A stretch of DNA of 35,820 bases from a virus (lineage: Duplodnaviria > Caudoviricetes). Below are positions 6,424 to 24,757 of the stretch, in pieces (position 1 is the stretch's first letter; each line of letters starts with the position of its first letter). The translations under genes were made by a program, and so were the position numbers. The notes under the pieces are model-generated. The model saw nothing but the letters and a program-made list of their open reading frames with translations. It was not told the origin of the DNA and made no database searches. The DNA is taken from positions 1 to 35,820 of the IMG/VR virus record IMGVR_UViG_3300010358_000008. One strand, written 5' to 3'.

Positions 6424-6477
6424 CCAAGCGTAGGTCCGGGTGTTCACCGACCCCTGACCACCCAGGCCTAGCCTTGG
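6424..6477. promoter_or_regulatory. Back-to-back divergent promoters forming an imperfect inverted repeat
   Basis: TGAACACCCGGACCTACGCTTGG (minus) versus TGACCACCCAGGCCTAGCCTTGG (plus), 18/23 identical. -10 hexamers TACGCT (6427-6432, minus) and TAGCCT (6469-6474, plus); the latter is 6 nt before GTG 6481. Confidence 0.6.
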
Positions 6478-16380: not shown

Positions 16381-17403
16381 TTAGTTAGTCGCCGCCAAAA
16401 CGATGCTCTGATCGGTAATCAAACCGAATCCCCAAATCGCATACCAGGCCAATGCGTGCTCACGACCGAAGTCCAACACGCCACCATCACGGAGCTCCAC
16501 CGGGAGAGCGATGGCATGCCCGAAGGCATTGTCCCCCAGGTAAAGGGCCAGGTGAACGACCCCGGCGTTGGTGTAGGTGGTGGGCGGGACGGTGGTCGGG
16601 CCAGTGCTGGGAGCGTACTGCCGGATCTGAGTCGTTTCGATATAAACGACATCATTCAGACGGCCTATTTCTCCAATCATGAAGTTTCCAGCGGCAGCGT
16701 ATTTTGTCACTTCTATGAACTCAGGATTGTCCCTTAGACGCCGAGACTGATGCGGGTCAATAAACGCCACATACGTCTCGCCCAGCCTGGGCACATTCTT
16801 GGTGGCGAGCGTTTCGACAGCGTCCTTTGTGACATTGACGCTGAGGAAGTACGTCCCATCCAGTCCGTTCCAGGCCGTCGCCAGCGTGCCAGCGTCGTAG
16901 GGGGACAGAGGGGTACGAGTGGCACCCGCAGGGGGCGGCTGATAACCGAACAGCAGGGAGGAGGCCTGGTACAACGTGTCCCTGGCACTGCCGTCCAGGT
17001 ACTTAGCCATGTTTCTCCCGAGGAGCCTTGAGCTACTCGCCATCACGTCATCAAAGGAGGAGTTGAGCAAGAGCTCACTCACGGCCACGGCATAGCCCTG
17101 CTCTGCCACCGTGATGGCGTACTGAGAGGCCGTCAATGCCGCCGTCTGCATGCGGACACCTTCAACAAGCTGCGTGGCGTCACCCAGGTTGTTGTAGCGC
17201 ATGAAGTTGATTTGCAGTCCAGGCTGAATGCCGAGCTCTGTCTTCTTCACAGCGAACTGTTCAAAGCGCAGCACCGGCATGCTCTGGAACAAAATCTCCT
17301 TGCTCCAGATCACCTGGATAGCTGGAGATAGCTGCGAGTTTGTGCCCGGATATCCCGTGGGGCTAGCGCTCAGCAACGGGGTGCCGGTGATTGCGGAAGG
17401 CAT
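16381..17403 (-). CDS. Major capsid protein (N4-gp56 family)
   Basis: WSKEILFQSMPVLRFEQFAVKKTELG, GEIGRL, PVELRDGGVLDFGREH and WYAIWG motifs. SD GGAGG; follows the scaffold gene. Confidence 0.92.
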   Translation of the reverse strand: MPSAITGTPLLSASPTGYPGTNSQLSPAIQVIWSKEILFQSMPVLRFEQFAVKKTELGIQPGLQINFMRYNNLGDATQLVEGVRMQTAALTASQYAITVAEQGYAVAVSELLLNSSFDDVMASSSRLLGRNMAKYLDGSARDTLYQASSLLFGYQPPPAGATRTPLSPYDAGTLATAWNGLDGTYFLSVNVTKDAVETLATKNVPRLGETYVAFIDPHQSRRLRDNPEFIEVTKYAAAGNFMIGEIGRLNDVVYIETTQIRQYAPSTGPTTVPPTTYTNAGVVHLALYLGDNAFGHAIALPVELRDGGVLDFGREHALAWYAIWGFGLITDQSIVLAATN

Positions 17404-17457: not shown

Positions 17458-18255
17458 CTACTGTTGTCTACGACTTTGCGACGCCGCACGCAGCAAGCTG
17501 TCACGTTGGGCACTGTACTCTTCGGGTGTCATCGCCTTGAGTTCATCTGCCGTATAGGTGCGTGTCGTCTGGCTGGAAACATCGGGCCCAACCGGTGGTG
17601 ACGTGACTCCCACAGTCGGGCGAGTTGCATTTTGATTTCTCACAACTTGCTGGTAATTGCCCAGGATCGCTGCTGATTTTTCCTTGAGCAGATTGATGCT
17701 GGAGTCGATCTCTTGCTCCGTATTACCGGACACGAGATCCCTGAGCTCTGGAGCGATCTCGTCACCCTCCAAAGCCATGCGCTGAGCCAAGTAGGTCTGG
17801 AGGGAAGCATGCCGCCGCTCTTGCTCCAACATGGCGAAGGCCCGCTCCCGCTCAGCCCTCTCCTCGTCCAGCTTGGTCTGCCACTCCTGCTCCTTGCGCT
17901 CCAGGAGGGTGCGAACCTCCATGTCCTCCTCTTCCTTCTTCTTGGCAGCCCGCTCCGCAGCCTTCGCCGCCTGCTGGTCTGCCTTGTCCCGGTCCTCCTG
18001 GGCCTTGCGGAAGGTGGCGAGCTCGTTCTCTAGTTGGTCAGCCCTGGTCTGCTCAGCGGTGACACGGGCCCGCTCTTCCTGGCGGATGCGCTCCACGTCC
18101 TCTGCGGTGAACTGCTGGACATCTGCACCGGAGCGTTGGTTGCGGTTGCCCGAAGTCGGAGGCTCAGGCGGCGGCTCCTGCACCGGGATGGTGATGCTGT
18201 TGGGATCCTGCTGGGGGGTCGGTTCGCCCTGCGGCTCGTTTTCAATGACGGACAT
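17458..18255 (-). CDS. Capsid scaffolding protein
   Basis: Charged coiled coil between portal and capsid genes. C-terminal 'LKAMTPEEYSAQR' capsid-binding-type helix. Confidence 0.8.
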   Translation of the reverse strand: MSVIENEPQGEPTPQQDPNSITIPVQEPPPEPPTSGNRNQRSGADVQQFTAEDVERIRQEERARVTAEQTRADQLENELATFRKAQEDRDKADQQAAKAAERAAKKKEEEDMEVRTLLERKEQEWQTKLDEERAERERAFAMLEQERRHASLQTYLAQRMALEGDEIAPELRDLVSGNTEQEIDSSINLLKEKSAAILGNYQQVVRNQNATRPTVGVTSPPVGPDVSSQTTRTYTADELKAMTPEEYSAQRDSLLRAASQSRRQQ

Positions 18256-18275: not shown

Positions 18276-20048
18276 TTAGCTAGTGGAGTCTTCTTCGGGC
18301 AAGCGGCGCTGAGGCAGAGTGGTCCCATGAGCCAGGGTGACGATCCTCTGGAACATCTTCTGAACGTCTGCGTTGTCCTTGAGATCGAGTCCGGGGGCGG
18401 CGGCGATCTTGGCGGTTGGCGCAGTGTTTACTTGCGGACCACCCGCAGGCTTAGTGTCTCCCCCGTTGGACGAGCCGCTCTTGGAGCCGCCATTGCCTCC
18501 ACCATTCTGTGGGGGTGGTGGGACTGGCTGGGGGCCCTCTGGCGGGACCATGCCGGTCATGTTGACAATGAGGGAGGCGACCTGGGCCCGGAGGAATTCC
18601 AGAGCAGCTTGCTGTTCGGCGTCGTCCAGCAACTCCTTGAAGAGCTCCTGGAGCTTTTCGTCGGGCTGCTCCTCACCGAGCTCTTGGAGGGCACCACGCT
18701 TCGACTCAAGCCCCAGCGCCATCTTCACCTGGAGCTCGTTCAGCAGGATCAGCTTGTCAACAGGAAGAGGCGGCTGAAAGTGGACCGTGTTCTCATACGT
18801 CACCGGGTCCATCGGATCCAGCATCGGTAGCTGGTCATCCCGCAGGGGCGGATCCTCCAGCGGGTCATAAACCAGCCGATCCGGCTCCTTCATGAACAGG
18901 GTCTTCAGCGCCAACCTGTTCACCTCAGCAAAGCCCTCACCATACTGTGTGGCCTTGAGCTTGAACCGATTCATGAGCGGTTGATATTGGATGGCTAAGG
19001 CCACGCCAGAGGTATTTGAGATGGCCTGTTCCTCGCCCAGCGCCGTTTTGGGCACACCGGTCATTTCATGCATGGCCTGCTTAATTACTTCCAGGGCTTG
19101 CAGAGATGTCTCGATGCCACGGGGATCGAACAGAAGGTTCTCTACCTTGGCTTCCTTGTTAGGGATTGACCAGGTCTGATGGCTGCCTTTCTCCAGGTTA
19201 GAGGCCCGAGCTCCGATCACTACCGTTACCGGCGCAGCGTGGTAGTTGACGATATCGAGGATGTCCGTCATCGTCTCGTTGTAGGCCCGATTGAGCACGG
19301 TTACGTCCTGTATATCCGGCATACCCCACGGCGATGAAGGGATCGGTAGGTTGCTGATATGGACAATAGGGATCTCACCCAACGGGTTCTCACGGCTGTC
19401 GATGAGCTCGTCATTAACGTACTCTTCGATCTGATTTTCGGTGAGTAATTCCGTGTAAGTAAAAACCTGTCTCGTCCCTTCTGCCGATGTCCCCCAGAAG
19501 CGATATTTGAGCTTAAAACGAATCATTCGAGCCCGGTCATGTGGGTGCCATTCCGGGAACGCATAGGCGCTATTTAGCGGCAAGATACGCACCCGACCCG
19601 GATGTGGCATGCCCGAAGGATCCACCCAGGGCTCCTCGTAGGCCACCTTTATGAAGCAATCTCCAGTCACCGAGCCCATAGCCCCGCACTCCCACAGGAC
19701 TGAGTCCTTGCGGTTGTCCTTCTCCCAAATGCGCTGAAGTCGGGTGGGTACTATCGCTCCGGTAGCGTCGGGTGAGCGAAATGAGACGCCCTTACCGAAG
19801 ACAAAGTTAGTGGTAAAGTCACTCAATGCCCTGGTGTAGTTAAAGGTTAACTGCGGCTCACCTAAGTCAGGACGTTGGGCCCAGTGGTATCCCAAATAAA
19901 AAGCCCAGTTCATGGCGTAACGGTTTAACCGTGGGCCATGTACCTCAAACTCCTCGTCCGCTAGCTCCACCAACCCGAGCGGGCTTATCTGGATCGTCAG
20001 GTCTGACGATGCGGCACGATAAGAGGGGGACTGGAATTGGATTGACAC
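18276..20048 (-). CDS. Portal protein (SPP1 gp6-like)
   Basis: Likely GTG start at 20048 (TAGTG overlap). NWAFYLG, GDCFIKV, NPLGEIPIVH, SNTSGVAL motifs; Pro/Gly-rich C-terminal tail. Confidence 0.9.
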   Translation of the reverse strand: MSIQFQSPSYRAASSDLTIQISPLGLVELADEEFEVHGPRLNRYAMNWAFYLGYHWAQRPDLGEPQLTFNYTRALSDFTTNFVFGKGVSFRSPDATGAIVPTRLQRIWEKDNRKDSVLWECGAMGSVTGDCFIKVAYEEPWVDPSGMPHPGRVRILPLNSAYAFPEWHPHDRARMIRFKLKYRFWGTSAEGTRQVFTYTELLTENQIEEYVNDELIDSRENPLGEIPIVHISNLPIPSSPWGMPDIQDVTVLNRAYNETMTDILDIVNYHAAPVTVVIGARASNLEKGSHQTWSIPNKEAKVENLLFDPRGIETSLQALEVIKQAMHEMTGVPKTALGEEQAISNTSGVALAIQYQPLMNRFKLKATQYGEGFAEVNRLALKTLFMKEPDRLVYDPLEDPPLRDDQLPMLDPMDPVTYENTVHFQPPLPVDKLILLNELQVKMALGLESKRGALQELGEEQPDEKLQELFKELLDDAEQQAALEFLRAQVASLIVNMTGMVPPEGPQPVPPPPQNGGGNGGSKSGSSNGGDTKPAGGPQVNTAPTAKIAAAPGLDLKDNADVQKMFQRIVTLAHGTTLPQRRLPEEDSTS

Positions 20049-20296
20049 TATGACCAACCAGGAGAGTGTCGGATCTGACCCTTCTCAGGCACCCAGGCTT
20101 GCACCGGGTGGCCCTGGATATCGTTCGGGTCAAATGGTTCACCAGGTAGGAATGTCTTAGCGAACACTCCTACATGTCCAGCCTGTTCATAGTGCCCTTG
20201 AGTCAAGGGTGGAGGATGGTACGGAGCGTGGCGTCGTCCCTCATTGCGCCGGTCATGGAAGAGACGATGACCGCCGATGCCGTCCATCCTGTCCAT
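20048..20296 (-). CDS. Small protein with N-terminal DGIGGHRLFHDRRNEGRRHAPYHPPPLT tag (copy A)
   Basis: TGATG-coupled start; stop overlaps the portal start. Shares 28 identical residues with its neighbour. Confidence 0.75.
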   Translation of the reverse strand: MDRMDGIGGHRLFHDRRNEGRRHAPYHPPPLTQGHYEQAGHVGVFAKTFLPGEPFDPNDIQGHPVQAWVPEKGQIRHSPGWS

Positions 20297-20556
20297 CAAG
20301 ACTCACCTATATGGAACCGGGTACGGCCAGGCTTCTCCAGACCCTCAGTGATCAGGTGCTCACCCCGGTGGTACTCACCGATGTCGCCCTCCAAGGTGGG
20401 GTAGTTGACCTTGCCCTGGTGCTGAGTGATCCAACTGACCTCCATAGGAGCAGTGGATGTCAGGGGCGGCGGATGGTAAGGAGCGTGGCGACGGCCCTCG
20501 TTACGACGGTCATGAAAAAGCCGATGACCACCAATGCCGTCTGCTCGCTCACTCAT
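20296..20556 (-). CDS. Small protein with N-terminal DGIGGHRLFHDRRNEGRRHAPYHPPPLT tag (copy B)
   Basis: Same 28-aa block with only synonymous differences; unrelated C-terminal half. Confidence 0.75.
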   Translation of the reverse strand: MSERADGIGGHRLFHDRRNEGRRHAPYHPPPLTSTAPMEVSWITQHQGKVNYPTLEGDIGEYHRGEHLITEGLEKPGRTRFHIGES

Positions 20557-20565
20557 GTGAGTACG

Positions 20566-20751
20566 TCACCGTTGTGGCTGTTGCCGTCGCTGCTCATCGT
20601 ATTCCATCTGCGTGCGAGGCAGCCGCCGACGCTCCGCAATCTGAGTCAGGATGCGCTGCACCTGGCGGTCGTAGGCCTTGTGCGGGTGGCCCGCAGCCAT
20701 GGCCGCATGACGGGGCTGAAAGCGGGTCAGGTTGGAGGACTCATCGGCCAT
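20566..20751 (-). CDS. Small basic Arg/Gln-rich protein
   Basis: Start reassigned to ATG 20751 (MADESSNL..., SD GGGAG), overlapping the upstream gene end. Confidence 0.5.
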   Translation of the reverse strand: MADESSNLTRFQPRHAAMAAGHPHKAYDRQVQRILTQIAERRRLPRTQMEYDEQRRQQPQR

Positions 20752-20980
20752 CTTTGCTCCCATACAGACGCTGGTTGTCGCTCTGATAGCTGTTGTCGCC
20801 GCCACCAGGCCGGTAGATCTGCTCCAGCGTGGAGGAGAGCCCGCTAGGGGCAGGAGCACGGCCCTCCCGCCTGGGCGAGGAAGACAGCGGGTTAGCGTGG
20901 GGGTCACGCCGGTCGTTCCACAGCGTCTCGATGTCCATGTAGTCGATGGGGACACCCTTGACCTTGTAGTCCTGCATCAC
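20741..20980 (-). CDS. Small hypothetical protein
   Basis: SD GGGAGG before GTG/ATG; packs into the operon; contains LWNDRR. Confidence 0.55.
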   Translation of the reverse strand: MMQDYKVKGVPIDYMDIETLWNDRRDPHANPLSSSPRREGRAPAPSGLSSTLEQIYRPGGGDNSYQSDNQRLYGSKDGR

Positions 20981-21048
20981 TGCCTCCCTGACAAAAATCT
21001 GGAGCCCCCTGCGACCACTCCGGGCATTTTTTCCAGTACCCTGGAGGT

Positions 21049-21249
21049 ATGGCTACCACGACCATCAAGCTGACCAGGAAGGAGTTCGCTCTCCTTTACG
21101 AGTACCTCGACAGAGAGCACTCGTTCGTCTGGGATCCAGCCGAGGTCGGGAAGACCACCAAGTTGGGCAAGGAGCTCTGGGACCGGGTCCAGAAGATCGC
21201 CACCGAGCAGGACTTCACCCCTAAACATAAGGCTGTCCCGTCCGGGTAA
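21049..21249 (+). CDS. Small antisense-oriented hypothetical protein (leaderless)
   Basis: MATTTIKLTRKEFALLYEYL..., preceded by TACCCT-N6-ATG. GC3-rich codons. Confidence 0.65.
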   Translation: MATTTIKLTRKEFALLYEYLDREHSFVWDPAEVGKTTKLGKELWDRVQKIATEQDFTPKHKAVPSG

Positions 21250-22081
21250 CGCCCTTCACCCTGGGCTTTCCGCTCTTGGTGGGGGCCGAAGTCTCGATGT
21301 GCTTGCCGCCCTCCCACACGATGGCCTGCATGTGGTGGGGGAGCTCGATGTCACGGCCCAGGCCAGCCGCCCGGTAGGCATTCTCAAAGTGCTCGTAGCG
21401 GGTGGGCTTGCCTGAGGCCAGCGCCGCAGAGGAGAGCCCCCGGCCCGAGTAGGCAGCCGGGTACATCCGGTTGATGGCGATGTCATGGGCCCGGTAGTCG
21501 ATGGTGACGTGGGTGTGCTGATGGGGGTAGGCGATGTTGTGGTAGAAGCTGTGGATCTTCGGGGCCGTGCGCCGGTTGATCACGTCCTCGATGTTCTCGC
21601 CCTCCATGAGCCGGTGAGCTCGCACCAGCCCGGTGTCAGAGGCATGCACCAACGACATGCCCTTCAGGAGGTGCTCCACCTCCGGGGTGCGCCGTCCCCC
21701 CGCCTCTGAGCGATGGATGGCAGCCCAATCCTGCTTTTTAAGGCTGTGGAGCTCCTTAAAGGCCGGGATATTACGGCTGCCCCAATCCATCTGCGGGCTG
21801 ATCGAGGCCACCATGGCCGCACCATGTTCAGGGGAGACAGAGGTGCGCCGGATCCCCTTCTGCACCGCTTCATGCACCTTGGGATACCACTCTGAGCCCG
21901 AAGCCCGGAGATGGGGCGGGGTGACATCGTGGAGGTGCTGGATGTTACGGACAGCCTGCATGAACTGGTCCGGGTTGCCCAGGTCGAACTTGGGGTACTT
22001 GGCGGCAAATCCCACCTGACTGGACCGTCCAGTCGGTGTGCGAGGGGCATCAGAGCCAGGACGAACGAAGGGGCTACCCAC
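21221..22081 (-). CDS. Conserved phage protein, possible HhH-type DNA glycosylase-like fold
   Basis: WY...ASISPQMDW-x-x-x-N...K-x-x-SF-x-x-NI...VTID-x-x-A...Y...AY-x-x-A...QAIVW pattern. The family is recognised; the fold and function are inferred. Confidence 0.55.
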   Translation of the reverse strand: MGSPFVRPGSDAPRTPTGRSSQVGFAAKYPKFDLGNPDQFMQAVRNIQHLHDVTPPHLRASGSEWYPKVHEAVQKGIRRTSVSPEHGAAMVASISPQMDWGSRNIPAFKELHSLKKQDWAAIHRSEAGGRRTPEVEHLLKGMSLVHASDTGLVRAHRLMEGENIEDVINRRTAPKIHSFYHNIAYPHQHTHVTIDYRAHDIAINRMYPAAYSGRGLSSAALASGKPTRYEHFENAYRAAGLGRDIELPHHMQAIVWEGGKHIETSAPTKSGKPRVKGVTRTGQPYV

Positions 22082-22398
22082 TACGTCGGCCTATCTCGAC
22101 GGCCCTCACCACGGCGGTCATGGAACACGTCATCACCAACGTCAACGGTCTTGTGCACTCCGTACATGCGGACCCGTCGCCCGGAGGGCTGATTGCTGGG
22201 CGGGACCGAGTGGGTGTACTCGATGTCCTGGAAGGGCCCGCCTTCTGTCTCAGAGGTGGCCTCCCCGGCCACCACGCCGTAGTGCCACTGGTTGGCCTTG
22301 GGGTTCTTCCACTTGACCACCCGAGCTCTGCTGCCCTTCTTGGGCGCACCGACACTGCCGAAGGGCGTGTAGGCAGCGTCGAACTCAGTGGCGTCCAT
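22081..22398 (-). CDS. Small protein with C-terminal FHDRRGEGRR tag
   Basis: Tightly coupled to both neighbours; ends VGDDVFHDRRGEGRRDRPT. Confidence 0.65.
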   Translation of the reverse strand: MDATEFDAAYTPFGSVGAPKKGSRARVVKWKNPKANQWHYGVVAGEATSETEGGPFQDIEYTHSVPPSNQPSGRRVRMYGVHKTVDVGDDVFHDRRGEGRRDRPT

Positions 22399-22399
22399 C

Positions 22400-22801
22400 T
22401 CAGTCGGTGACTACCTCAGGGGCCCGCCGCTTCTGGATGCGTCCGTTGCGAACCACCTCTTCATAACGGACTTCGGCTTGATCCGTAAATGAGCCGTGAG
22501 CAAATTCCCCCAACATGGTGGGAGCATCGATCCAGGCAGCGGAGCCGACATGAGCTCGCTCCGAGAGCGTCTCCTCTGGCATTTTGAACTGGACGTTGGG
22601 GTCAACATGGTTGATGCGACCCGGTGCCGACACCATGAACTCCAACATCCCCCGTTGGAAATCGTTGGGCACATCGGTGTCAGTGGACAGGCCTTCCTCA
22701 AAGCGCAGCGGACCCCGGCCACCAGGTGCATTGGGGCCAACACTTACGTCATAGGCATAACGCCCCCGCTCCGGGAACGTCGGCTCAGGCCCCAGGCTCA
22801 T
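22400..22801 (-). CDS. Conserved virion-associated hypothetical protein
   Basis: RGPLRFEEG-x-x-TDTDVPNDF...ERAHVGSAAW motif recalled from Bxz1-like phages near the portal. SD GAGGAG. Confidence 0.7.
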   Translation of the reverse strand: MSLGPEPTFPERGRYAYDVSVGPNAPGGRGPLRFEEGLSTDTDVPNDFQRGMLEFMVSAPGRINHVDPNVQFKMPEETLSERAHVGSAAWIDAPTMLGEFAHGSFTDQAEVRYEEVVRNGRIQKRRAPEVVTD

Positions 22802-22838
22802 GGAGGCTCCTCTCTACGGCTTTCATGGCTTTGTAGGA

Positions 22839-22890
22839 AGGCTAGTGAGGGGCCCCTGGCCCTCCTTGACCACCCGAGTACCCTGGAGGC
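22839..22890. promoter_or_regulatory. Divergent promoter pair
   Basis: TAGCCT on minus (22839-22844) ahead of the 22801 gene; TACCCT on plus (22879-22884), 6 nt before ATG 22891. Confidence 0.5.
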
Positions 22891-23142
22891 ATGTCCGACC
22901 TGTGGGCGCAGCAGACCTCCATGCAACGGGCCCTGGGCACCAGCCCGCAGTCAGGTGACACCCCCGCCGACAAGGAGCTCAGTACTGCGACCACTCCGTA
23001 TGCGGCCCAGCTTCAGTCGCAGTCACAGGTAGCCCGCTGGAAGAGCATGGCCCAGCCCGCCGTCGCTGGTGCCGCCGACAAGATCAATGGAGCTATCAGC
23101 GACGTGCTAGGGCCCTTGAACGGTGCCTTGCCTGGCGGCTAG
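22891..23142 (+). CDS. Small Ala/Gln-rich antisense-oriented protein (leaderless)
   Basis: Same AGTACCCTGGAGG-Y-ATG context as the 21049 gene. Overlaps the terminase 3' end by 47 nt. Confidence 0.6.
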   Translation: MSDLWAQQTSMQRALGTSPQSGDTPADKELSTATTPYAAQLQSQSQVARWKSMAQPAVAGAADKINGAISDVLGPLNGALPGG

Positions 23143-24757
23143 TGGGCACGGCCCGCCGTTCCGAGCGGCCCCACCGGCTGGCCGTGATCTCCACCTCTGG
23201 CACCACCAGCACCTGGCTCATGATGGTGGCGCATGACAAAGAGTCGACGTAGTCGTCGTGGACGCCAGCCTCGTCGGGGGCCTCGACCAACAGGTGGGCT
23301 CCCTGGTAGCGCTTCTCCACGTCGATCATCTGCTGACGAAATCGCTTCCAGTTCTTGGTTTTTTTGGCCTTCGGGTGGGCGGGCCATGACAACAAACCAC
23401 GTTGCAGCAACTGCTGGAGGTGCTTCCACCTGGCGGATTGCTCTGCGATCTGGGACGACAGTGGTTCCACCTGTATGTTGGGGAGAAGTCTTTTAAGACG
23501 ATCAGCAGCTACATCGCCTACGCCCTGAGCATCTACACCCATCGCCACTACGCTGTAGTTACTCAAAAAATCGACTATGCGCCAATACTGCTCTTCCCAC
23601 TCCTCCCCGTGCATCTCCAGCCAGTTCAGGATGCGATGGTCGTAGAGGCCAAGCTCATCGGGCCTGTCCCAATCCACCCATAGGACTGTAACCACGGTAC
23701 TGTCCATCTTCCGGGCGAAGTCAATACCGGCCACCAGGGGTGTCTTCCAATAGCCTGGCACGATAGGCATGGTGGCATCACCGAGCTCATCCATCCGACT
23801 CTCAGTGATGAGCATGCCCCGCTCCAACAACCACTCCAGCTTGTAGTTGAGTCGGAATTCATCTGAGTCCTCTCCCACCCGCATGGCCTCGCCCCGGATG
23901 TAGGCGGCGTAGTTGCGGTTGTAGCGGGCGCAGTATTTCCAGTCGAAGCGGAAGTGGTTCTTCTTACCACCCCGGCGTAGCTCCTGGCGACGGTTGTGCT
24001 GGATGGTCTTGTAGAACAGCCCCTTGGTGATGTCGGGAGTGCCGGTCATCACCACAGTTGCAAGATAGAATGCACCCATCGGTGAGATACTCTTATTAGC
24101 GACGTACTCATCGACGGCCTGCGACTCATCCACGAAGATGACGTGGTAGCTCTTGGACTCGATCTTGGCCCTGGGGTTGGCCGTCTGCATGGCACAGAAG
24201 CTGCCGCACTTCTTGAGCCGCACCCGACGAGAGCCTGGCTTGACCTGGTCATCGATGTCGGGATCCTCCAGCATTTCCAGGGCCCGTTCGCTGGTCAGCC
24301 GGTCCACCATGCGACCGAACAGCGTCTCCACCTGTTGCTCCACCGGGGCGAAGCAGCCGATCATGACGCCCCGGCTGAACTTCTGGAGAGGCTGGAACTC
24401 CTTGAACATCTCGGCCAGCCGGGGTAGCAGGATCATCAGGCTGGCCCCCACGTTGGCAAGCACCTCAGTCTTCCCACTCTGACGGCTGAGCTCACCCGTT
24501 ATGGTCGCCCCGTCTCCTGAAATAACCGATTCAATGATGCGCCGCCCCAGGCTCTCCTGGTAGGGAAACATTTCCACACCACTGAACATGACTGTGAATT
24601 GCCACACCTTGTCAGTGAGACGTGCAACGAACTGCTGATCAGTGGGGTCGAGCTCCTGGGGGGCGTAGCTGGCGATGTCATCGGACAGGCCGTCCTCGCT
24701 CTCGGCCCAGAGCTCCTCGTCAGGTTCTTCCAGGCCCGGTTCGGCCACATACGTCAT
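23096..24757 (-). CDS. terL: Terminase large subunit
   Basis: Walker A SRQSGKT, Walker B VIFVDE, coupling motif TGT, RNase H-like AGIDFA...D and HDDYVDS. Confidence 0.93.
   Translation of the reverse strand: MTYVAEPGLEEPDEELWAESEDGLSDDIASYAPQELDPTDQQFVARLTDKVWQFTVMFSGVEMFPYQESLGRRIIESVISGDGATITGELSRQSGKTEVLANVGASLMILLPRLAEMFKEFQPLQKFSRGVMIGCFAPVEQQVETLFGRMVDRLTSERALEMLEDPDIDDQVKPGSRRVRLKKCGSFCAMQTANPRAKIESKSYHVIFVDESQAVDEYVANKSISPMGAFYLATVVMTGTPDITKGLFYKTIQHNRRQELRRGGKKNHFRFDWKYCARYNRNYAAYIRGEAMRVGEDSDEFRLNYKLEWLLERGMLITESRMDELGDATMPIVPGYWKTPLVAGIDFARKMDSTVVTVLWVDWDRPDELGLYDHRILNWLEMHGEEWEEQYWRIVDFLSNYSVVAMGVDAQGVGDVAADRLKRLLPNIQVEPLSSQIAEQSARWKHLQQLLQRGLLSWPAHPKAKKTKNWKRFRQQMIDVEKRYQGAHLLVEAPDEAGVHDDYVDSLSCATIMSQVLVVPEVEITASRWGRSERRAVPTSRQARHRSRALARR

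Follow-up and report, generated by a model that had tools for sequence, protein, structure and literature searches.

How a tailed phage chooses the proteins that go into its head is understood in few systems. The question is raised by a stretch of DNA from a virus of the Caudoviricetes (IMG/VR record IMGVR_UViG_3300010358_000008, positions 1 to 35,820; the whole of this stretch is called the window), in which small proteins encoded next to the portal gene share a short peptide, FHDRRxEGRR, and are otherwise unrelated. The original prediction, drawn from the letters of the window, proposed that the peptide is a tag that docks variable cargo on portal, scaffold or capsid. We find that it is a real, strongly selected and portable tag of a large uncultured clade of actinobacterial phages, that its five-residue core is conserved much more widely, and that it may dock proteins on the phage's own assembling head.

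A strongly selected, portable peptide

Genes A (82 amino acids, 20048-20296) and B (86 amino acids, 20296-20556), both on the minus strand, contain the same 28 residues, at 20201-20284 and 20458-20541, with the tag near the N-terminus of each protein, at 20231-20260 in A and 20488-20517 in B. Fifteen of the 28 codons differ between the two blocks, each by one base and every time synonymously, just as the original prediction had counted. The chance of 15 synonymous changes out of 15 under neutrality is ~1e-9. Synonymous sites of the block are saturated (15 differences observed, 16.4 +/- 2.5 expected from independent codon draws), and similar saturation is seen between orthologues of G133, the conserved protein encoded at the start of the same gene run, at 90% protein identity (65 of 120 codons).

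The codon differences had been taken as a sign of selection rather than recent duplication. Strong selection on the peptide there is, but the long block does stem from duplication. An orthologue of A (P0001, 63% identical) keeps 23 of the 28 block residues, the tagged protein P0024 keeps 20 and an orthologue of B (P0017) keeps 11. When B is compared with its orthologues, the codons of its cargo, that is, the part of the protein beyond the tag, differ in only 10-12 of 44-45 conserved positions, and those of the tag in 4-6 of 9. Because the cargo of B is close to that of its orthologues while its block resembles the A orthologue, the A family is the most likely source from which the head of B was copied, with purifying selection keeping it thereafter; tag segments pass by copying from one cargo to another. 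By the same comparisons, the shared tag proper is a peptide of some ten residues with a core of five, not the whole block of 28.

Gene C (105 amino acids, 22081-22398, minus strand) holds the third copy, FHDRRGEGRR at 22096-22125. This copy is real, although the gene was said to end in it; it ends in DRPT, and the motif lies 14 residues before the stop. The orthologue of C at locus L013, 82% identical, is tagged too. By chance, ~1e-8 copies of the nine fixed residues of the tag would be expected in the coding frames of the window.

A search with a degenerate DNA pattern of the tag gave 16 loci on 12 IMG/VR contigs. The head module is present, 81-91% identical, on nine of these contigs, and one has tagged small genes in a ParB-type island; the remaining two (L005 and L012) look like off-frame chance matches and were rejected. 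For the count of copies, IMG/VR loci, 80 G133 loci, selected metagenome loci and five clade genome records were used, hand-picked for phage context and with two loci identical to the window excluded. Together these sources give 47 distinct DNA copies of DRRxEG[RK]R, to which the window contributes three. The two preceding positions were free in the search, and the first is F, H or Y in 47/47 copies and the second H or N in 42/47. Position 6 accepts 13 different residues, all six arginine codons are used, including AGR versus CGN, and third codon positions agree in only 43-85% of the copies. The tag is thus conserved in relatives as a protein, with freely varying codons, which supports the original prediction.

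Equally borne out is the view of the tag as a portable unit that is placed at either end of unrelated proteins. The 45 cargo sequences of at least 15 residues fall into 26 families, and the tag is N-terminal in 27 copies, C-terminal in 18 and internal in two, start choices being heuristic. Tagged proteins are rich in Gly and Pro (21%, versus 13% in the comparison set) and poor in hydrophobic residues (21% versus 33%). NGNG/DGDG repeats precede the tag in the close clade, in N-terminally tagged genes such as those of L006, L013 and L217, and follow it in a distant lineage (L230:4962-5132); the C-terminal tail of the portal has a similar stretch.

The copies are concentrated among the head genes. 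By our tally 39 of the 47 lie in the interval between G133 and the portal gene, and full tags, one to three each, occur in 18 of 24 distinct complete intervals of this kind; in four genome records, seven of eight tag matches fall within it, with 0 control matches. Within genomes, 17 of 20 tag pairs agree in their first two residues (permutation p 5e-5); as an FH pattern had served to find several of the genomes, this figure is biased and we do not use it.

Broader searches added little. A metagenome search returned 106 matches, mostly unrelated DNA or shadow frames; core proteins of the window were matched at 17 of these loci, two being the window's own sequence and two weak. A search of 1.84 billion representatives, made with a profile of all 82 columns of A and so addressing A's family rather than the tag, gave seven hits; of the three inspected, two are tagged proteins and the third is a piece of the cargo of A. 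A tblastn search of B against named phages returned one match (E 7), and a PDB search with the tag alignment returned nothing. In the literature searched, mostly non-subscription papers without supplements, we found no published account of the tag.

A five-residue core shared with gene D

Gene D (79 amino acids, 20741-20980, minus strand), which is kept in the clade, contains WNDRR at 20906-20920. The original prediction saw here a possible degenerate tag. The motif is indeed present, but it is a conserved core: in a search with the motif masked in the query, all 30 distinct homologues read [WFM][NS][DE]RR at this site, and one of them reads FNDRR. The core is common to D and to the tagged proteins. 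Some C-terminal copies of the tag likewise end early, after FHDRR (genome records G001, G002 and G009).

Outside the clade the core goes further than the full tag. In a Streptomyces-type lineage (portal 53% identical) F[HN]DRR opens the gene after G133 in 34 of 36 loci, and each of four complete genomes of this lineage has the core pattern exactly twice; in the two genomes read, the second copy is at the end of a protein of 55-56 residues, near a large gene that resembles the large gene of the interval. In the wider family, 125 intervals gave 26 matches to the core on the sense strand, against one on the antisense strand and none in the reversed sequence, although many of the 26 matches belong to one lineage and lineages are not independent. 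At least three more families, unrelated to the others, carry it there.

Most telling of all results is a swap of ends on homologous cargo. At locus L337, whose portal is 54% identical to that of the window, a protein with WNDRR at its N-terminus has, by sequence homology, the same cargo as proteins of L025 and L049 (44% and 41% identity, E 1e-16 and 2e-15) that carry the full tag at the C-terminus.

A further candidate core, FSDRR in the DNA polymerase of relatives, was rejected, as it is not conserved in the polymerase of the window. Residues ~165-175 of the portal form an HPHD[RK] loop, kept in nearly all family members examined, which partly resembles the core.

Gene order, expression and neighbours

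The window, 35.8 kb long, is a piece of a phage genome and makes up ~30% of it. Genes for terminase, portal, scaffold, major capsid, sheath, tube and baseplate lie on its minus strand, and genes for a WhiB-like protein, DnaB, primase, helicase and DNA polymerase on its plus strand. It comes from a BRock-like actinobacterial myophage: the closest named phages are Streptomyces phage BRock and its relatives, with ~50% identity in G133, and remoter relatives occur as prophages in the genomes of Streptomyces, Terracoccus, Nonomuraea and Actinomadura. Because the prophage relatives sit in actinobacterial genomes and BRock is the nearest named phage, we infer that the host is an actinobacterium.

The gene for the terminase large subunit (23096-24757, minus strand) is the upstream border of the interval. 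Then follow, on the same strand, G133 (133 amino acids, 22400-22801), a homologue of BRock gp155 with no function assigned, C, F286 (21221-22081), D, H61 (20566-20751), B, A and the portal gene (18276-20048). H61 is a small, basic, conserved protein of 61 residues without a tag; the original prediction had overlooked it. Junctions in this run overlap or nearly touch, with one exception, a 240-nt gap that contains most of a small untagged antisense gene (21049-21249, plus strand). Stop-to-start overlaps join B, A and portal, and the portal most likely starts at a GTG that overlaps the stop of A at 20048. The candidate partners of the tag are the portal protein, which is SPP1 gp6-like, the scaffolding protein (17458-18255, minus strand; phrog_1793, E 8e-5, plus position) and the major capsid protein (16381-17403, minus strand; N4-gp56 family by source names).

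A promoter-like element, GGGTGGTC-N22-CTAGCCT, precedes the head-gene run at 22839-22876 (minus strand) and is likely a late promoter. It is found upstream of G133 in 26 of 27 loci examined, with a spacer of 22 nt in 25; it looks specific to these phages, and so long a spacer of fixed length is unusual. Its only other copies in the window are a divergent pair at 6437 (plus) and 6464 (minus), before tail genes, and the reversed-genome control gave one hit. Clade genome records G001-G003 and G009 have one to three elements each, before head and tail modules, and G004 has none. The placement of the element suggests that the genes of the interval are transcribed together with portal, scaffold and capsid. 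No excess of sigma-70 promoters or terminators was found. Two antisense genes, the one at 21049-21249 and another at 22891-23142, share a 17-nt upstream element (21035-21051 and 22877-22893, plus strand); the second stands back to back with the promoter-like element of the head genes.

The untagged neighbours include proteins with recognizable relatives. F286 is a DUF7178 protein (Pfam PF23802, E 1e-25) and a candidate virion cargo. Its model (predicted local distance difference test, pLDDT, 83) has a predicted helix-hairpin-helix fold resembling DNA glycosylases; the best structural match is 3n0u (Z 9.8, root-mean-square deviation 4.0, 181 residues aligned), a Z score that is moderate for a helical protein, and the top 22 rows of the search are all of the glycosylase superfamily or queuine-salvage relatives. 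Other untagged neighbours or island genes are ParB-like or have a weak match to M91 peptidases. G133, whose conservation equals or exceeds that of the portal, is without a Pfam or PHROG family; modelled alone it gave no confident structure (pLDDT 45), no usable Atlas hit and no useful PDB sequence match, and it may be a head protein of extended shape that takes up its fold when bound. For C the sole lead was a weak one to the OB fold, below 0.9. Of the domains looked for in five records, the MuF domain PF04233 was found in none (its control was detected in five), nor was the HK97-type prohead protease PF04586 (control detected), nor the prohead protease PF03420, for which the positive control was silent as well.

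Several features of neighbouring genes are recorded here. A second short motif, approximately L-x-x-x-Q-F, recurs close to the N-terminus of island proteins, ParB-like ones among them (intervals of L247, L249 and L251-L253; L011; L204:18419-18982; L205:6933-8456), and in G002 one gene with this motif directly follows the promoter-like element; the motif may be another cargo tag. Large interval genes of L020, L025, L028 and L052, and L011:1372-2448, contain Q-L-P-G-M and Q-G-x-L-[DF] stretches, which we take to recall sliding-clamp binding motifs. Genes that by eye are endonuclease-like come right after G133 at L023:9438-10055, L058:5107-5763 and L251:8424-8933.

Proposed docking on the phage head and its alternatives

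What does the tag bind? With a probability that we put at roughly one half, it is a portable docking peptide for the phage's own assembling head, which would carry proteins in or on the virion. The tag would bind a conserved part of that head: the aromatic-[HN]-D-R-R core would engage an acidic site on capsid shell, portal or scaffold, protein D would be the regular user of this site, and the accessory proteins would hitch on to it, with xEGRR as a clade-specific extension. The cargo would act in the next host or modify the head. The position of the tagged genes, in the head-gene run and behind an element that otherwise precedes tail genes, supports docking on the head, as does the likeness of their glycosylase-like, ParB-like and weakly M91-like neighbours to typical virion cargo. 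Because the MuF domain is absent from the five records, another loading route is plausible. A complex prediction of two capsid subunits with residues 1-36 of A scored 0.02 against a mark of 0.32; its controls were not folded, and we do not use it as evidence. A bolder reading, less likely than not, is that BRock-like actinophages share as a family an old address code of the head, in which the five-residue core was copied from a conserved small head protein onto dozens of interchangeable mini-proteins, at either end, for encapsulin-like loading on an HK97-fold capsid, with neither protease nor MuF and with L-x-x-x-Q-F addressing enzyme cargo in parallel.

A number of observations weigh against docking on the head. 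A full tag is lacking in six of the 24 complete intervals. The head region holds all but eight of the 47 copies; of these eight, four are of polymerase-recA type and four of ParB-island type, and shortened copies also cluster in the polymerase-recA interval, three of them in G009. The polymerase-recA module is directed away from the head genes. At the threshold used, neither its tagged genes nor those of the ParB island showed a promoter-like element nearby, and these element-less genes count against a purely structural role. F286 is the largest likely cargo, yet it is untagged. No Pfam family was found on any tagged protein among 50 proteins scanned, and [FWL][HN]DRR has no match in BRock.

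The tagged genes that lie in the polymerase-recA module without the element speak for a different partner, a host protein or a non-structural protein of the phage such as an adaptor, a protease or a defence sensor, in which case the tag is a handle and the proteins act in the cytoplasm. In addition, the small, Gly/Pro-rich and weakly hydrophobic cargo of the tagged proteins in general is typical of accessory proteins and turns over fast. We give this explanation a minor though appreciable chance, given that most copies lie in the head-gene interval and that the core is kept in a conserved interval gene across lineages with portal identities of ~50-57%, some in different host genera; its 'bait' version was negative, in that 53 cargo pieces, compared with 1686 long open reading frames, had no match beyond their own frames and other tagged ones. 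It is rather improbable that the tag is a mimic of the tail with which the large terminase, at its C-terminus, binds the portal; it would then sit on the outer clip of the portal and time or block packaging instead of loading cargo. According to PMC5290284 and PMC13595956, the phages P22, T3, lambda and SPP1 have terminases that bind the portal through their C-termini, and the tag resembles such tails in being short, aromatic and basic: tails of the wider family end in P-F-[FY], often with an acidic residue and RR, that of BRock has FYDRRR at its end, which matches a tag variant, and L251 has RRRYEGR. This likeness was spotted post hoc, however, and most of 71 distinct tails are without the acidic-RR part. 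Tails of the tag's own clade are mostly P-W-x-x-x-x-R-R, that of the window differing further, so that the likeness is poorest in just those phages in which the tag is most widespread. The tag, unlike the tail, is carried by accessory proteins and at either end, and twelve portal sites leave little space for up to five tagged proteins and D.

With four arginines in ten residues the tag could also be a nucleic-acid-binding motif that tethers its proteins either to phage DNA or to a hairpin in RNA, and its RRxExRR spacing recalls the antitermination peptides of lambdoid N proteins. Against this, the Asp, Glu, Gly and aromatic residues belong to the motif and its second half can be missing, there was no Rfam match, and 19900-23200 showed no repeated hairpin, which makes it improbable. 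The suggestion that the tag is a protease recognition site has proved weak. Several phage prohead proteases cleave after Glu, and the tag contains E-G; but the deep core is without E-G, cleavage of C-terminal tags would free few residues (the motif is often within the last 14), and the window has no protease gene between portal, scaffold and capsid, in line with the absence of PF04586 from the five records. We therefore hold a protease site to be very improbable. Hardly credible is a cause at the level of DNA or RNA, be it a nucleic-acid element, a second frame over the same letters or a recent duplication that drifts neutrally. Copying did produce the 28-codon block, which is detectable as an 83-nt repeat, but its synonymous sites are saturated with zero amino-acid changes. 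Other reading frames are less conserved, one close frame being stopped in seven of 47 copies, and RNA folding z-scores are 0.47, 0.20 and -0.71, with no Rfam match; an overlapping frame or RNA element, which the original prediction had named as what might explain the conservation away, does not account for it.

Comparison with known systems

The capsid-targeting sequence (CTS) of T4 is described as a short peptide on otherwise unrelated, dispensable small phage proteins (PMC9958956), and the tag resembles it as a peptide of about ten residues common to unrelated small phage proteins. It differs in that the CTS is N-terminal only, whereas the tag is C-terminal in 18 of 47 copies and marks homologous cargo at either end; in that the CTS acts in a core digested by the gp21 protease, whereas of the two prohead protease families looked for here PF04586 was found in none of five records and PF03420 in none with a silent control; and in the spread of the tag over ~26 cargo families. 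The two peptides presumably have no sequence likeness. Cargo-loading peptides of encapsulins, according to PMC7355545, are N- or C-terminal and bring several cargoes to a shell of HK97 fold. By positional evidence the tag is like them in its use at either terminus of several cargoes, and the phage capsid shares the fold of the shell. Here, however, the candidate shell is a phage major capsid encoded beside portal, scaffold, terminase, sheath and tube, not a non-viral compartment; the tagged proteins are small and show no known domain, and the shell is a proposed binding partner.

Iyer et al. 2017 describe portal-linked polyvalent cargo encoded by variable genes near terminase and portal, with ParB-like and peptidase-like domains (PMC5512222). 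The hypervariable terminase-portal neighbourhood of the tagged phages, with domains of both kinds on untagged genes, the peptidase-like one by a weak match, is similar; it differs by the missing MuF domain and the absence of large fusions, the cargo being split into small proteins that share a peptide. BRock (Borockvirus), also a myovirus, has the same order of terminase, G133 (gp155), variable genes, portal, scaffold and capsid, but with ~50% identity in G133 and 53-54% in the portal, other proteins in the interval and no motif. By analogy, the tag would work like the T4 CTS or an encapsulin cargo peptide; since each class has defining features that are not found here, it would be a member of neither, nor of MuF-linked cargo.

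What would the tag mean for these phages? The T4 targeting sequence is reported to act in a core of unresolved structure (PMC9958956). The tag, placed at either end and shuffled among dozens of cargoes, has its core in lineages with cultivable hosts, as prophages in Streptomyces and Terracoccus genomes, which makes the question of head loading directly testable. If the tag does dock on the head, it would provide a handle for loading proteins into actinophage heads and would allow candidate injected proteins to be listed by their motif. If its partner is instead a host protein, the tag would mark one target that a family of phages engages through many different proteins.

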